From an uncultured archaeon (GTDB lineage: Archaea > Thermoproteota > Nitrososphaeria > Nitrososphaerales > Gagatemarchaeaceae): a stretch of DNA of 64,000 nucleotides. A program made the translations under genes and the position numbers. The stretch covers positions 1,088,001-1,152,000 of the forward strand of contig CAWFOU010000001.1 in the NCBI GenBank assembly GCA_963817525.1, in the 5' to 3' direction. The notes under the pieces are model-generated. The model was not told where the DNA came from and made no database searches. It saw only the letters and a list, made by a program, of their open reading frames with translations. Below are positions 14,127-35,860 of this stretch, piece after piece. The stretch's first letter is position 1; each line of letters starts with the position of its first letter.

Positions 14127-17084
14127 TCAGCCCTTTATGTTTCCGATGGGCCTGAGGGCCGCGACCTTCAGCGAGATGCCGGCCTGGTGCATCGTCTCGA
14201 CGACCTCGGAGATGTCCTTGTAGGCCATCCCGGCCTCCTCGGCCAGTCCCTCCCACGTGGCGGCCTTGACGTAGATGCCGCGCTTCTCCATCCTCTGCTG
14301 TAGGTCCTTGCCGCTCACCTGCCTCTTCGCTGCCGTCCTCGACATCGTCCTCCCCGAGCCGTGCGCGGTGGAGCCGAAGGTCTCCTCCATCGCCTTCTCC
14401 GTCCCCAGGAGCAGGTAGGAGCCGGTCTCCATCGAGCCGCCGATGATCACGGGCTGGCCCAGCGCGCGGTAGGCCGGGGGTATGTCGGGGTGGCCTGGGC
14501 CGAAGCTACGGGTGGCCCCCTTCCTGTGGACGAGCAGGTCCTTCGAGCCCCCGTCGACCTTGTGCCTCTCCACCTTCGCGATGTTGTGGCAGACGTCGTA
14601 GATGATGTGCATGTCGAGGGCCTCGGGGTCCTTGCGGAAGACCTGCTTGAAGGCCTCGCGTATCCTCATGACTATGACCTGCCTGTTGGCGAAGGCCATG
14701 TTGGCGGCGCAGACCATCGCGCCGTAGTAGTCCTCGCCCTCCTTGGAGGAGAAGGGCGCGCAGGCGAGCTCCCTGTCCCGCACGGTGATGCCGTACTTCT
14801 TCATCGCCCCGTCGAAGACCCTTAGGTAGTCAGAGCCTATCTGGTGGCCGAAGCCCCTGCTGCCGCAGTGGACCATGACCACGACCTGGTCGTCGTGGAC
14901 CAGGCCGAAGTGCTTGCCCATCTTGGCGTCGAAGAACCTGGCGGGGTCGACCACCTGGACCTCGCAGTAGTGGTTCCCCGAGCCGAGCGTTCCCAGCTGG
15001 CTGATCCCCCGGCTGGAGGCCTGCTGGCTGACCTTGGAGGGGTCCGCGCCCTTGATGTATCCGCCCTCCTCGACCTTCTCCACGTCGTCGTCCCAGCCGT
15101 AGTCGTTCTCGGCGCACCACTTCACTCCCCACCTCATGATGTCCTCGAACTGCGGCTGGTTGAGCTTCACCAGCCCCTTGACCCCTACCCCGGTGGGGAT
15201 AAGCCTGAAAAGCAGGTCTACGAGCTCCTTTATCCTGGGTTTGACCTCCGAATAGCGCAGATTCGTCCGAACGAGTCGCATTCCGCAATTGGAGACCACC
15301 ATCCCGTCGGAGACGAAGTTGTGGTTGGCGTCGCCGATAGTCACGTCATACACGAGACCTTCATATGGTATCGACTCGATCGAGACGATCTTGTCGTAGA
15401 CCAAGCCGCTCTTTCCCTCCTCTGAGCTGGCTGCGAACTGCTCCAGTCGGACTGACCGCCAGACCCTGGCGTGTCCTCTGGTCTGCCAGATTGAATGGCG
15501 GATGAAGCTTGGGCCCGCCACGTCGGAGGCAAGAGAGCTCACTATCTCTCGGGCGGGGACGCCGGCAGCGCGCATCGCCACCGCCTGCGCGCGAACCCTG
15601 TCCCTTTCGTCGCGGATCGTCTGGACGTGCGAGAGGAAGCATGATGCGACGCTGGCTAGCCTCTGCTTGTCGCGGTTGTAGAGGTAGCCAACCTGACCGA
15701 AGAATCTGAGAAGGTTGGGAGTGTTCGAAAGTATCGAGAGGCGGTGACCCGTCGAGGGGCCGTCGATTCCTGCGTAATCGTAGCCTTCCACACGCACGGG
15801 ATTGGAGGTCTCCACGCCGAGTGACAAGAGAACCCCGCGGAAGTCCTCGAGGAGCTCGACCGCGCTCTTCGAGAGCCGGACCAGCTTGCTTACGCTGAAG
15901 GACGGCATCTGGAAATCGTAACCGTTTCCGGTGATAGGTTTCGAAAGCTCGGCGCCGAAGAAGGCGCCGAGGAAGAGCTTTTTCTGCCACGCTTCCGCGG
16001 AGAAGAGCCATTCAGGAAGGCGATACGCCTGATTTGTCTTCTTCCCATAAGGGGCGCCGAGCGCCACCATGAGGACCGCGAGCGCGGTGGAGGAGGCCTG
16101 AAGTGAGTGCTCTGTGAAGTCGAACTCGGACGTGCCATAGGCCGTCTTGATCCTGTGGTGACGATCCCTCGTGAAGCTATGGGATGCGAATCCGAGAGAA
16201 CTGATATCCTTCTGTATGTCTGCGAGGTCTTCGGGATTTCCCCAGAAGGAGGTGTAATGCCCTTTTTTCACCGCGGGGATGTTGCCGTCTCCGAAGATGA
16301 AGCCTAGCAACTTGGCAACTGCTACCATCCTCGGGTCGCTGAGCAACAGACGGTCGAGGCCGCGTTCCCTGAGCTCGCGCAGAATCTGAGTCCTGGAGTT
16401 TCCTCGATCTGTTATGCCCATCCTCGTCATCGCGAGGTCGAGCGTGTCCGAAGAGACGATCTCAATCGAATAGGGCTCCGTGAAGGGGATGCCTTCGACT
16501 CCGGTCGTCAACAGCGTGTCTTCGATCGTGAGCTTACCTGCAGGGACCATCCCGGCCGGGGTGCGGATGGGATGGTCGGCGGTAGCCAGCAGAGTCTTGC
16601 CGGCCTTGGTCTTTATCTTGAGGATCGACTCGGCTTCCCAACGGCGCTGTTTCAGCACCGCCCGAGTGGGAATCCCAGACCGCGTAGTCTCGTCGAAGGT
16701 TAGGAACCCCTGGGTGGTGGTGTCGATGTCTGCGATTCTTCTCCAAATCCCGTTCTCGTCGATGACCTTGGAGTCCGGGTGGAGGCAGTTGATATCAAAT
16801 CCGATTCCGCCAGGTGAAATTATCCCATTTTCAGGGTCGAACGCGGCGACGCCCCCTATAGGGAAGCCGTAGCCCCAGTGGGCGTCGGCCATGGCGTAGG
16901 AGTACTTTACGATGCCAGTGAGGGACGCGACGTTCGTGACCTGCTCGATCACCCCGTTGTCCATCTCCTCGAGGAGCTTCTTGGTCGCGTAGATCCGGGC
17001 GGGGACGTTCATCCCGGCCTTGTAGGAAGTGGGAATCTCCCAGACGACGTCCGAGATCTGCTTTGCGTTCTTGACGTCGGTCAT
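14127..17084 (-). CDS. rtcB: RNA ligase RtcB (intein-containing)
   Basis: DAHWGYGFPIG, GFDIN[intein]CG, GSGNHY, HCGSRG, HRKGAT, HGSGR. Confidence 0.96.
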   Translation of the reverse strand: MTDVKNAKQISDVVWEIPTSYKAGMNVPARIYATKKLLEEMDNGVIEQVTNVASLTGIVKYSYAMADAHWGYGFPIGGVAAFDPENGIISPGGIGFDINCLHPDSKVIDENGIWRRIADIDTTTQGFLTFDETTRSGIPTRAVLKQRRWEAESILKIKTKAGKTLLATADHPIRTPAGMVPAGKLTIEDTLLTTGVEGIPFTEPYSIEIVSSDTLDLAMTRMGITDRGNSRTQILRELRERGLDRLLLSDPRMVAVAKLLGFIFGDGNIPAVKKGHYTSFWGNPEDLADIQKDISSLGFASHSFTRDRHHRIKTAYGTSEFDFTEHSLQASSTALAVLMVALGAPYGKKTNQAYRLPEWLFSAEAWQKKLFLGAFFGAELSKPITGNGYDFQMPSFSVSKLVRLSKSAVELLEDFRGVLLSLGVETSNPVRVEGYDYAGIDGPSTGHRLSILSNTPNLLRFFGQVGYLYNRDKQRLASVASCFLSHVQTIRDERDRVRAQAVAMRAAGVPAREIVSSLASDVAGPSFIRHSIWQTRGHARVWRSVRLEQFAASSEEGKSGLVYDKIVSIESIPYEGLVYDVTIGDANHNFVSDGMVVSNCGMRLVRTNLRYSEVKPRIKELVDLLFRLIPTGVGVKGLVKLNQPQFEDIMRWGVKWCAENDYGWDDDVEKVEEGGYIKGADPSKVSQQASSRGISQLGTLGSGNHYCEVQVVDPARFFDAKMGKHFGLVHDDQVVVMVHCGSRGFGHQIGSDYLRVFDGAMKKYGITVRDRELACAPFSSKEGEDYYGAMVCAANMAFANRQVIVMRIREAFKQVFRKDPEALDMHIIYDVCHNIAKVERHKVDGGSKDLLVHRKGATRSFGPGHPDIPPAYRALGQPVIIGGSMETGSYLLLGTEKAMEETFGSTAHGSGRTMSRTAAKRQVSGKDLQQRMEKRGIYVKAATWEGLAEEAGMAYKDISEVVETMHQAGISLKVAALRPIGNIKG
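15288..16787 (-). mobile_element. RtcB intein with LAGLIDADG endonuclease (500 aa)
   Basis: CLHPDS start, TADH block B, LLGFIFGDG and FLGAFFGAEL, VYDVT...HNFVSDGMVVSN/C end. Confidence 0.93.
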
Positions 17085-31515: not shown

Positions 31516-32694
31516 GTGATGGAAAAGCCCGAGGGCAGCAGGCCCGCAGTTCTGCTTCTGGAGGACGGGACCCTTATCCTCGGGAAGGGCTTCGGGGCCG
31601 AGGCCACCGTGGTCGGGGAGCTCGTCTTCAACACCGGGATGGTGGGCTATCCCGAGTCCATGACCGACCCATCGTACGCCGGCCAGATCCTTTGCTTCAC
31701 CTACCCCCTGATTGGGAACTACGGCGTCCCCTCGGCCCAGGAGAGGGACGTCTTCGGGCTGCCCAGGTACTTCGAGTCGGGCGGCATCAAGGTCACGGGC
31801 CTGGTGGTCCAGGAGCAGTGCGAAAGGCCCAGCCACTGGGCGTCGGTCCAGACCCTCTCGAGATGGATGGCAGACCAGGGCGTCCCAGGGATAGAGGGGG
31901 TCGACACGCGCGCCCTGGTCTCGACGATAAGGGAGCGGGGCGTGATGATGTGCGCCCTGGCGAACGGTCCGGACGTGGCGAACAGGCGGGAGCTGAGGAG
32001 GCTCCTGGAAAAGTCGGCCAGGTACGACTCAGTCGACTATGTGAAGCGGGTGTCGGTGAAGAGCGCCGAGACTTACGGCGTCTCGGACAAGAGGGTCGTG
32101 GTCATCGACTGCGGCGCGAAGGAGAGCATCATCAGGAACATGCTGGGAAGGGGGTACGCGGTCGTGAGGATGCCCTTCGACTCGTCGTACGCCGACGTGA
32201 TGAAGCACGACCCGTCTGGTGTGATCGTCAGCAACGGCCCGGGCGACCCGCGGCTCTGCGTCGAGACGGTCAAGACAACGGCGAGGCTCGTCGACTCTGA
32301 GGTGCCAGTCCTCGGGATATGCCTCGGAGAGCAGGTCCTCGGGATGTCCCAGGGGGCGGAGACTTACAAACTGAAGTACGGCCACAGGGGCCAGAACAAG
32401 CCTGTCGTCGACCTCGTCTCCGGGAGGGGGTACGTCACGAGCCAGAACCACGGCTACGCGGTCGACCCCGAGACCCTCCCCAAGACGGAGCTGAGCCCCT
32501 GGTTCGTCAACGCGGACGACAAGAGCGTGGAGGGCCTCCTCCACGCGACCAAGCCGTGCGTCGCAGTCCAGTTCCACCCCGAGGCGGCGCCGGGCCCGTA
32601 CGACACCGAGTTCGTCTTCGACAGCTTCGCGGGGATGATGCTGTCCCAGAAGAAGAGCGTGGTAGGTGAGAGAGTTCGAAACATGAAAGCGTGA
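31516..32694 (+). CDS. carA: Carbamoyl-phosphate synthase small subunit
   Basis: GELVFNTGMVGY, SNGPGDP, GICLG, QNHG, QFHPE. Confidence 0.96.
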   Translation: MMEKPEGSRPAVLLLEDGTLILGKGFGAEATVVGELVFNTGMVGYPESMTDPSYAGQILCFTYPLIGNYGVPSAQERDVFGLPRYFESGGIKVTGLVVQEQCERPSHWASVQTLSRWMADQGVPGIEGVDTRALVSTIRERGVMMCALANGPDVANRRELRRLLEKSARYDSVDYVKRVSVKSAETYGVSDKRVVVIDCGAKESIIRNMLGRGYAVVRMPFDSSYADVMKHDPSGVIVSNGPGDPRLCVETVKTTARLVDSEVPVLGICLGEQVLGMSQGAETYKLKYGHRGQNKPVVDLVSGRGYVTSQNHGYAVDPETLPKTELSPWFVNADDKSVEGLLHATKPCVAVQFHPEAAPGPYDTEFVFDSFAGMMLSQKKSVVGERVRNMKA

Positions 32695-35600
32695 AGAGTG
32701 CGCTGGTCCTCGGAAGCGGGGCAATAAAGATCGGAGAAGCAGGTGAAAGCCGCTAGGCGGCCGCCAGTTCGACTACTCCGGTTCTCAATGCCTCAAGGCG
32801 CTTCGCGAGGAGGGGATACGCTCCATACTGGTCAACCCGAACATCGCGACAATCCAGACCGACGAGAGGATGGCGGACAAGATCCACTTCCTCCCGGTCA
32901 ACCCTGAGTTCGTGACTGACGTCATCGAGAAGGAGCGGCCCGAGGCTATACTCCTCGGGTTCGGGGGACAGACTGCCCTCAACTGCGGGGTGAACCTCTC
33001 CCGGATGGATGTGCTGTCAAAGTACGGGGTGAAGGTGCTCGGGACCCCGGTGAGGGGGATCGAGGTCACCGAGGACCGCCAGCTCTTCAAGGACACCATG
33101 CTCGAGATCGGGATAGCCTGCCCGAGGAGCAAGCCCGCCTACTCCATCGCGGAGGCTCACGAGGTCGTCAAGGAGATAGGCTACCCCGTGATAATGAGGG
33201 TCGCGTACACGCTCGGCGGCCGCGGCGGTGGAGTCGCAAGGAACGACAGGGAGCTCGACGAGATCGTCCAGAGGGGGCTCAACCTCAGCATGGCGCGCCA
33301 GGTGCTGATCGAGGAGTATATCGGCCACTGGAAGCAGATAGAGTACGAGGTGATGCGGGACGCGGACGACAACGGGCAGATAGTCTGCAACATGGAGAAC
33401 GTCCTGAGCATGAGGGTGCACACCGGGGACAACATCGTGGTCGCCCCCTCGCAGACGATATCCAACCGGGAGTACCACATGCTCCGGTCGCTCTCCCTCA
33501 AGGCGGCGAGGAGGTGCGGGATAGTGGGCGAGTGCAACATGCAGTTCGCCCTCGAGCCCGAGTCCGAGACATACCGCGCCATCGAGATCAACGCCCGCCT
33601 CTCGAGGTCTTCCGCGCTCGCGTCCAAGGCGACGGGCTACCCCATCGCGTACATCGCGGCCAAGATCTGCCTGGGTTACTCCCTGACGGAGCTGAAGAAC
33701 AAGGTCACGGGGGTGACCACGGCGATGTTCGAGCCCTCGCTCGACTACTGCGTCCTGAAGATGCCCCGGTGGGACACCAAGAAGTTCGAGGGCGCGTCGA
33801 GGGGGATAGGGACGGCGATGAAGTCGATAGGGGAGGTGATGGCGATAGGCAGGGGCTTCGAGGAGGCGGTGCAGAAGGCGTCGAGGATGCTCAACATCAG
33901 GTACGACGGCGTGATAAGGCGCCTGCTCGAGGAGGACGACGTAGAGGTCCTGAAGGCCAGGCTCAGGAACCCCACCGACCAGATAATCTTCGACGTCGTG
34001 GAGGCCCTGATGGTCGGGATACCCGAGGACGAGGTGGCGAGGCTCAGCGTCATCGACCCGTGGTTCGTCAGCAAGCTGAAGAAGATCGTGGACGCCTACC
34101 GGAAGGTGGAGCTCAGCGGGAGGGAGGGCGTCGACCGCGACCCGGAGGTCCTCCTGGAGGCGAAGAGGCTCGGGTTCTCGGACAAGCAGATAGCGAACGC
34201 GGTCGACATCGACGAGGACGACGTGCGCGCGATGCGCGAGAGGATGGGGATAGTCCCGAAGGTCAAGGCGATAGACACGCTCGCCGCGGAGTGGCCGGCG
34301 CGTACCAACTACCTCTACGTGACCTACAACGCCTCGACCGACGACGCCAAGCCGACCGACAAGAGGAAGATCATGGTCCTCGGCGCGGGACCCTACAGGA
34401 TCGGGAGCTCCGTGGAGTTCGACTGGGGGACGATGAACATGGCGTGGGCGTTGAAGGAGAGCGGGAAGGTCGACGAGATAATCGTGGTGAACTGCAACCC
34501 CGAGACGGTGTCCACGGACTTTGACATGAGCGACAGGCTCTACTTCGAGGAGCTGACCGCGGAGCGGGTGCTCTCCATCTACGAGAGGGAGAAGCCGATG
34601 GGCGCGGTCCTTTGCGTGGGCGGGCAGACCCCCAACGACCTCGCCCTCGAGCTCGACAAGAAGGGCGTCAACGTGATGGGGACGAGCGCCGAGTCCATCG
34701 AGAGGGCGGAGGACAGGGAGAGGTTCGCGTTCCTCCTCGACAAGATAGGCATACCCCAGCCCGCGTGGGGGAGCTTCAGGTCGATGAAGCAGGCCCGCCA
34801 GTTCTGCGACAAGGTCGGGTACCCGGTCATCGTGAGGCCGTCGCACGTCCTCAGCGGGTCGGCGATGAGGGTCATCTGGGGCAGCAGGGAGCTCGAGAGC
34901 TTCCTCGCAAAGGCCGCGGAGGTCAACCCCAACTACCCGGTGACGATAAGCAAGTTCCTCGAGGACGCGAAGGAGGTGGAGGTGGACGGCGTCTCCGACG
35001 GGGAGACCACGGTCATCGGCGCCATAATGGAGCACGTCCAGAAGGCGGGCGTCCACTCGGGGGACGCGATAATGACCATCCCGACGGTCTCGGTGAGCGA
35101 GGCAGCGAAGGCGAAGATACGCGACTACACGCGCGCGATCGCGAAGGAGCTGGGCGTCAAGGGGCCGTTCAACATCCAGTACCTGTGCGTCAAGGACGAC
35201 GTCGAGGTGATAGAGTGCAACCTCCGCGCGTCGAGGTCCCTGCCGTTCGTCTCCAAGGCGACGGGGGCGAACCTCATCAAGCTCGCCGCGAACGTCATCC
35301 TCGGCGGGACGCTGGAGGGGATGGGCGACGTCCCCGAGCCCAAGCAGTTCGCGGTCAAGGCGCCACAGTTCTCGTTCATGCAGATGGAGGGGGCTGAGCC
35401 CACGGTGGGGGTGGAGATGCGCTCCACCGGGGAGGTCGCGTGCTTCGGCAAGACCCTAGCCGAGGCGATGAGCAGGGCACTGATAGCCTCGGGGCTCAAG
35501 ATACCGTCCAAGGGGGGGACGGGGATAATCCTGGCCGACGAGGACTCCGACCTGGGCGAGGCGAAGGCCCTGATAGAGGGTTTCAAGAGGGCTGGGATAG

Positions 35601-35860
35601 GGTTCGTCACTACCGAGTCGCTCGTCCCGACCCTCAGGGACGCGGCCAAGGTCGCGACCGTGGAGGCCATGCTCGAGATGATCAGCAAGGGCGAGGCGGC
35701 CTTGGTCCTCTCGCTCAACACGAACCTCAACAAGGTGAGGAAGGACCTCTACAAGGTCAGGCGCAAGGCGGTCGAGCTCCAAGTGCCGTTCCTGACCACG
35801 GTGGAGGAGGGAGAGGCGGTCCTCCTCTGCGTCCGCTCCCCGTTGAAGACGCTCAGCTGA
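32691..35860 (+). CDS. carB: Carbamoyl-phosphate synthase large subunit, join(32691..32747,32768..35860)
   Basis: Exon 1 VKSALVLGSGAIKIGEAGE plus exon 2 FDYSGSQCLKALREEG...; GTG overlaps carA stop; two ATP-grasp halves. Confidence 0.93.
32748..32767 (+). other. Putative 20-nt bulge-helix-bulge (tRNA-type) intron in carB mRNA
   Basis: GGUG/CGCC 4-bp helix, AAA and AGU 3-nt bulges, inner stem GCCGC-UAG-GCGGC; cleavage after bulge nt 2 yields GGU GAA/UUC GAC. Confidence 0.88.

Follow-up and report, generated by a model that had tools for sequence, protein, structure and literature searches.

The carB gene (carbamoyl-phosphate synthesis) in a 64,000-nt stretch of DNA from an uncultured archaeon of the family Gagatemarchaeaceae (the window; positions 1,088,001 to 1,152,000 of contig CAWFOU010000001.1 in GenBank assembly GCA_963817525.1, here genome G000) raises the question of how a complete protein might be made from a reading frame that is broken close to its start. 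The window carB is interrupted at 32747/32748 and 32767/32768 by a 20-nt insert, AGCCGCTAGGCGGCCGCCAG (32748-32767). It is highly probable that this insert represents a bulge-helix-bulge (BHB) mini-intron spliced out of the carB mRNA through the action of the splicing endonuclease, with the cutting and joining themselves predicted from sequence comparison. The same interpretation was put forward in a first-pass annotation of this DNA and is supported by conservation of the insert at one site, base covariation, constraint on the exons, an intron-less allele, a second insert elsewhere in carB, and the encoded splicing enzymes together with the geometry of the tRNA-His intron of the same organism.

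Exon 1 of carB (32691-32747, + strand) comprises a GTG start and 18 codons, reads VKSALVLGSGAIKIGEAGE and ends in ...GGTGAA. Translation from the GTG at 32691 gives VKSALVLGSGAIKIGEAGESR and stops at the TAG of AGC CGC TAG within the insert, yielding a 21-aa product; the in-frame TAG (32754-32756) lies in the loop of a hairpin formed by the intron (32748-32767, + strand). Exon 2 (32768-35860, + strand) starts with TTCGAC, begins FDYSGSQCLKAL and contains 1030 codons plus a stop codon (35858-35860), so that the 19 codons of exon 1 and the 1030 of exon 2 together encode a CarB of 1049 aa. The mechanically derived carB open reading frame (ORF) starts only at an ATG at 32870 and specifies 996 aa. 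Sequence and frames thus bear out the earlier description of a carB split by a 20-nt frame-shifting insert with an in-frame TAG and an ORF track that begins at 32870. The insert is present in a single copy in the genome, even with up to 2 mismatches allowed, which rules out a repeated mobile element, and an Rfam scan of 32500-33000 returned one chance-level snoRNA match on the opposite strand (E = 0.84).

The match of exon 2 to the Pfam pre-ATP-grasp domain CPSase_L_D1 begins only at profile position 21 of 118, and the 20 missing positions, which exon 1 would supply, correspond to about its length. This bears on the proposal that the protein is made as two unjoined pieces, a peptide of 19-21 aa and a truncated CarB, or from an internal start, for which the 996-aa ORF from ATG 32870 and the use of such starts in public gene calls can be cited. 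The public calls of carB in close relatives (P0003-P0029) are 985-1019 aa long, as against about 1050 aa, and begin at assorted internal Met, Val and Leu codons, so that exon 1 is absent together with as many as ~45 exon 2 residues. However, a start at 32870 would sacrifice 34 more conserved exon 2 codons as well as exon 1, where profile positions 1-20 are missing even from the whole of exon 2; in all relatives the stretch from 32768 to 32870 shows conservation of its codons as coding sequence, and the positions of the internal starts differ from one relative to another. Synthesis of CarB in this manner is extremely improbable, and the truncated public calls are a systematic annotation error, on account of which carB may be counted as damaged when pathways are reconstructed. 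In three genomes of the genus to which G000 belongs, the carB match itself contains internal stops or falls into several frames (L014 in G021, with one TGA and one TAA; G009; G022), which may be due to sequencing errors in the assemblies or to real decay.

The positions at which the transcript would be cut can be predicted from the known specificity of the splicing endonuclease, which cleaves between the second and third bases of each bulge (PMC12397907). Applied to the window, this rule joins exon 1 (...GGTGAA) to TTCGAC and restores the motif G-E|F-D exactly. The bases flanking the two cut sites differ, so that there is no sliding ambiguity and no other pair of cuts restores the motif. The joined product is also found in nature: in a protein cluster made up of P0007 and two other members of 1050 aa (NCBI and JGI contig calls), exon 1 is followed directly by exon 2, and exon 1 of the window carB equals residues 1-19 of P0007 except for M in place of V at the start. 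At the DNA level, locus L170 (667-720), which is 97% identical to P0007, reads GGCGAA directly followed by TTCGAC and has no insert, and its near relative L175 (578-650), likewise from a metagenome and 90% identical over the matched N-terminal segment, has an insert of 23 nt. The claim that the cut rule yields G-E-F-D and a 1049-aa CarB, and that the unspliced message encodes 21 aa, therefore agrees with the frames, P0007 and L170. Since L170 also keeps the exon signature of insert-bearing genes (see below), it looks like a recent clean loss, such as recombination with a copy of the spliced RNA ought to produce.

Occurrence of the insert in other genomes was determined by pattern searches, which replaced open-frame length as a proxy for the insert because the latter proved ambiguous. 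Among relatives with a name, those closest to G000 are Nitrososphaerota (Thaumarchaeota) assembled from soil, peat and groundwater metagenomes. An insert of 17-30 nt occupies the same codon junction in 77 of the 100 loci with a readable junction, which answers the first-pass call to examine related carB genes for same-site inserts with covarying BHB pairs, the covariation being seen in the 62 sequences described below. Within the genus, all 22 readable genomes contain the insert, with lengths of 20 (2), 21 (7), 22 (3), 23 (1) and 24 nt (9) that cover all three phase classes; the proportion is 40 of 63 readable genomes for the family and 35 of 45 readable loci for metagenomes. Across the class, 163 of 301 evenly sampled genomes (160 of 298 when three unpublished genomes are left aside) possess an insert of 12-40 nt, and the junction is recognizable in 238 of the 301. 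By family code, these are distributed as 123 of 185 in f12, 32 of 40 in f15, 4 of 4 in f4, 2 of 3 in f1, 1 of 8 in f18, which belongs to a different order, and none of 9 in f9. Inserts were found in metagenome-assembled genomes (MAGs) labelled Nitrososphaera, Nitrosotenuis, Nitrosotalea and Nitrosarchaeum, and none was found in the Nitrosopumilus-labelled MAGs among the relatives compared. In 59 of 67 distinct insert-bearing junctions the insert contains an in-frame stop codon, in 29 its length is not divisible by three, and none lacks both features; every one of these versions breaks the frame, from which it follows that the insert is never coding.

This distribution bears on two simpler explanations of the broken frame. 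An assembly or sequencing artefact might be suspected because the genome is metagenome-assembled. However, in 21 other species of the genus and in many members of other families, all assembled independently, inserts occupy the same site, differ in sequence and keep their pairing, making an artefact vanishingly unlikely. That carB is a pseudogene, broken by a small insertion and fallen into disuse, would likewise account for the broken frame and for the truncated 996-aa protein given by gene callers, yet the 1030 codons of exon 2 are intact, the exon 1 peptide is conserved, no second carB was found in the genome, and the same break recurs in the 163 class genomes. The ratio of nonsynonymous to synonymous substitution rates (dN/dS) for exon 2, calculated over its 1030 codons against the four nearest relatives, is 0.07-0.13; judged by this ratio, exon 2 is under strong purifying selection, contrary to the pseudogene-like decay of which the first-pass annotation had warned. 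Disuse of the gene is thus extremely unlikely.

If the insert is a BHB intron, the transcript should be able to adopt the corresponding structure, and the minimum-energy fold of 32715-32795 (-31.9 kcal/mol) contains its principal elements. The last exon 1 bases before the 5′ bulge, GGUG (32742-32745), pair with the intron bases CGCC (32762-32765) to form a 4-bp central helix, H. On its two strands H is flanked by the 3-nt bulges AAA (32746-32748; unpaired in the fold; predicted cut 32747/32748) and AGU (32766-32768; predicted cut 32767/32768), and between them the intron forms an inner hairpin, h′, of GCCGC, the loop UAG and GCGGC (32749-32761; pair probabilities at least 0.92). A distal outer helix is made by CGGAG in exon 1 (32732-32736) and CUCCG in exon 2 (32776-32780), with pair probabilities of at least 0.98 (all strands +). 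The two opposed 3-nt bulges around a 4-bp helix that define the BHB motif are thus present, as is an inner flanking helix in the form of the 5-bp stem. By its energy the fold stands out only slightly (z = -2.22, with 4 of 200 shuffles folding equally well), and loose BHB motifs are common in this 61% G+C genome, where 131,856 were counted with all 8 pairs, equivalent to 4.7e-4 per given position and length. Accordingly, the observation on the single sequence is no more than suggestive, and it is on the comparative data that the case rests.

For the comparison, 62 distinct insert-bearing sequences were aligned and pairs were counted in the structure named above (868 cells). In total, 95.5% of the cells are paired; sliding the 3′ partners by 1-3 columns lowers this to 19.5-55.5%. 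The inner stem is paired in 94.2% of its cells and shows compensatory changes in four of its five pairs; H is paired in 92.7% and has one compensatory pair, its third, which is formed by a base of the intron with the wobble base of a Gly codon and is C-G in 59 sequences, U-A in 2 and U.G in 1, that of the window. The spacing between bulges and helix is invariant in the 62 sequences, as is the first base (A) of the 3′ bulge. The exons are constrained as well: third-codon positions that fall in the predicted helices (-16 and -13, +9 and +12 in the outer helix and -4 in the central helix) are fixed in 60-67 of the 67 insert-bearing sequences and vary freely in 22 insert-less sequences, whereas third-codon positions outside the helices vary in both groups alike. 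The predicted RNA structure is under selection, as judged from these patterns. In the longest inserts, all from family f15 (40 nt in G240, 33 nt in G265 and 32 nt in G227), the extra length sits in the hairpin, from which the size of the inner stem-loop appears free to vary and the tail of 4 + 2 nt fixed.

These data can be set against the possibility of translational recoding, in which the ribosome would cross the insert by frameshifting, stop codon read-through or hopping and no RNA processing would be involved. A precedent is gene 60 of phage T4, whose bypass depends on a fixed gap and on take-off and landing codons that match each other. The carB locus resembles it superficially in having a short non-coding gap within an ORF, a hairpin and a stop codon near the start of the gap. 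It differs from gene 60 in that the length ranges from 12 to 40 nt and the codons never match: the take-off codon would be GAA or GAG, and in none of the 62 aligned sequences does the insert end in either of these. In addition, the 20-24 nt lengths within one genus would demand a +1 shift, a -1 shift and read-through from a single mechanism, and recoding leaves unexplained both the covariation between exon and intron bases and the intron-less allele, in which the deletion lies exactly at the BHB cut sites. Recoding is therefore very unlikely.

For a BHB intron, the following pathway can be proposed. As the transcript folds, GGUG of exon 1 would pair with CGCC of the intron to give the 4-bp central helix, with the 3-nt bulges AAA and AGU on one strand each and the 5-bp intron hairpin as the inner helix, and the distal exon-exon helix CGGAG/CUCCG would hold both ends together. 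A two-subunit endonuclease would then cleave after the second base of each bulge, and RtcB would ligate the exons, producing ...G-E|F-D... and the 1049-aa CarB, while any message left unspliced would terminate after 21 codons.

The genome encodes both of the enzymes that this pathway would require. It contains two paralogues of the splicing endonuclease EndA (C1:403298-403534 and C7:1217907-1218161), each with the domains PF01974 and PF02778. The catalytic triad of the endonuclease is Tyr-His-Lys, and in an alignment of the two paralogues the His of the catalytic region is kept in one only; the pair fits the two-subunit type of endonuclease. The gene for the RNA ligase RtcB (14127-17084, - strand) is a single ORF of 985 aa interrupted by an intein, its RtcB domain falling into two parts (profile positions 1-50 and 49-426) on either side of ~480 residues with a match to the Pfam intein splicing domain. 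The expected joiner of the exons therefore needs protein splicing itself. Among the tRNA genes, aragorn predicted introns in 19 of 41, some of them spurious. The tRNA-His of the same genome (C7:703308-703399, - strand) has a 17-nt intron of the canonical hBHBh′ form, made up in turn of 1 nt, a hairpin, 4 nt and 2 nt, and its anticodon stem GAAGG/CCUUC directly adjoins the central helix CUGU/GCAG.

A number of observations weigh against the BHB intron. Neither spliced RNA nor an excised intron nor a junction peptide has been observed. From two sets of RNA reads (X1 and X2, each with only 0.06 of the words), the contigs listed included short carA/carB pieces from the organism itself or its relatives, none of which bridges 32748-32767, and no joint was detected; these have no bearing either way on splicing, expression or habitat. 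In the minimum-energy fold, two of the three bases of the 3′ bulge are weakly paired; with both 3-nt bulges forced open the energy is -31.6 kcal/mol, a penalty of only 0.3 kcal/mol. Unpaired stretches of 5 nt and 7 nt separate the outer helix from H, so that the motif is relaxed rather than canonical hBHBh′, in which the outer helix h abuts the central one. The fold claimed in the first-pass annotation consequently stands as regards the outer helix, GGUG/CGCC, the AAA bulge and the hairpin, and requires correction in that the AGU bulge is partly paired and the outer helix is not adjacent to H. Two-subunit endonucleases have been reported to accept relaxed motifs (PMC12397907; PMC5829648). Furthermore, the outermost pair of H is a G opposite an A in 18 of the 62 sequences, and the outer helix, 99% of whose cells are paired in the same sequences, is nearly invariant and lacks compensatory changes, its support coming from the synonymous-site contrast alone. 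Finally, the sequences are related and not independent, which inflates the shuffle statistics, so that these are not to be taken as probabilities; the slid controls and the contrast between insert-bearing and insert-less genes are less affected by kinship than the shuffles.

Further support for a BHB intron comes from a second insertion site. In hot-spring MAGs labelled Aenigmatarchaeota, with genomes of 0.6-1.7 Mb, carB contains an insert at a different site, 24 nt upstream of the one used in the window; it is 21-22 nt long and lies in codon phase 1 (L092:1447-1511, L105:1450-1514 and L108; also G408, G410 and G411). Its design is the same, with GUGC/GCAC as the 4-bp helix, AAA as the bulge, a hairpin of 5 bp, 4 intron bases and 2 more, and the same cut rule restores G-A-I-K-I, so that at both insertion sites a cut after the second bulge base would yield, by sequence, a functional joined product. 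This insert occurs in 5 of 61 relatives of G405, in copies that are nearly identical and add no covariation. The CarB proteins concerned nest in the Nitrososphaerales part of the tree, next to that of G034, a placement that suggests gene transfer or mis-binning.

The history of the intron was examined on an unrooted FastTree phylogeny of 92 CarB exon 2 proteins, from which two short rows, six duplicates and loci without a readable junction were left out. The insert needs 8 state changes on this tree, at least five of which are forced by well-supported branches. Insert-less clades are nested within insert-bearing ones and comprise the Nitrosopumilus-labelled group, two Nitrososphaera-labelled MAGs and a group in family f1, and the intron spans several families of the order as well as one genome from another order of the class. 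We infer one old gain followed by repeated precise losses as the simplest reading, with the order of events tentative because the tree is unrooted. The carB genes would thus offer a natural series for the study of intron gain and loss, with two sites and at least five precise losses, one of them recent and with its exon signature kept.

Whether other genes of G000 are split in the same way was addressed with a custom BHB scan, which returned 337,795 loose motifs. A first coding filter left 6695 matches, which mostly reflected normal boundaries between genes, and overlooked carB on account of its short exon 1; a second left 2823, and a strict filter gave 25 candidates including carB. Seven of the 24 others were dismissed because the upstream frame reads on for at least 57 codons. 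For seven candidates at 6 loci, Pfam gave four pairs of different families, two with a family on one ORF only and one with none, and for ten candidates at 9 loci Pfam gave one pair of different families and no family for eight, the latter being uninformative. The scan, which is insensitive and offers no proof of absence, supported no second split gene in G000.

Directly 5′ of the intron-bearing gene is carA, encoding the glutamine amidotransferase small subunit (31516-32694, + strand; Pfam CPSase_sm_chain and GATase). The TGA stop codon of carA and the GTG start codon of carB share 4 nt (GTGA, 32691-32694), an overlap that is kept across the genus and that suggests translational coupling of the two genes.

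The arrangement raises the further question of whether splicing of carB is a rate-setting or regulated step, an archaeal counterpart of the unconventional splicing of HAC1 and XBP1. In that process IRE1 cuts the mRNA and, in animals, RtcB joins it, the XBP1 intron being 26 nt long. Bases of exon 1 take part in the central helix as well as in the outer one, and the intron is situated only 57 nt from the carA-coupled start, so that a ribosome on exon 1 would melt the BHB. If the step were regulated, endonuclease and ribosome would compete for each transcript, CarB output would follow tRNA-splicing capacity, and function would explain why the intron has persisted for so long although it was cleanly lost several times. 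No conservation is seen in the intron loops, and an intron of this size leaves no room for a sensor. The first-pass idea of a regulatory switch finds no support in the data, and regulation of this kind is unlikely. The carB intron resembles those of HAC1 and XBP1 in its tiny size, the lack of any involvement of the spliceosome, the use of a protein endonuclease with an RtcB-type ligase and the need for a frame change to obtain active protein. It differs in the endonuclease and in the motif, which for IRE1 consists of twin stem-loops, and whereas HAC1/XBP1 splicing is a regulated stress switch, nothing at carB shows regulation. Unconventional HAC1/XBP1 mRNA splicing is also mentioned in PMC13149111.

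One of the closest known systems is the cbf5 pre-mRNA of Crenarchaeota, first reports of whose introns are said to be those of Watanabe in 2002 and Yoshinari in 2006. In the literature that was accessible, cbf5 has the only confirmed archaeal mRNA intron, a BHB intron found in Desulfurococcales and Sulfolobales, and no cbf5 intron is listed for Cenarchaeum and Nitrosopumilus in PMC2738675. The genome analysed here has no cbf5 intron, the TruB_N domain being uninterrupted in an open frame of 563 aa, and the host gene of its intron, carB, places the latter outside the cbf5 family. The first-pass view that BHB introns in archaeal mRNAs are known mainly from cbf5, with none known in carB, accords with a literature search that found no report of an archaeal carB intron; subscription journals and supplementary files were outside its coverage, and an earlier report may exist. 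If correct, the present interpretation would extend endonuclease-mediated mRNA splicing in archaea beyond cbf5 to a core metabolic gene and to the phylum of the ammonia oxidizers. Like the cbf5 introns, that of carB is a short intron within a protein-encoding gene that is predicted to be removed at a BHB by the tRNA-splicing endonuclease, in hosts with two-subunit enzymes and with patchy gain and loss among relatives. Unlike them, it has a very small size (12-40 nt) and a position 57 nt from the start codon, interrupts the gene for a core metabolic rather than an RNA-modification enzyme in another phylum, and has an independent equivalent at another site of the same gene in a second lineage. 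With the BHB introns of archaeal tRNAs, represented by the organism's own tRNA-His, it shares the pairing of 4 exon with 4 intron bases, the 3-nt bulges, and the layout and cut of the intron. It is distinguished from tRNA-His by an outer helix that stands behind an internal loop, where the anticodon stem abuts the central helix, and by a product that is a messenger, the reading frame of which would depend on the splice.

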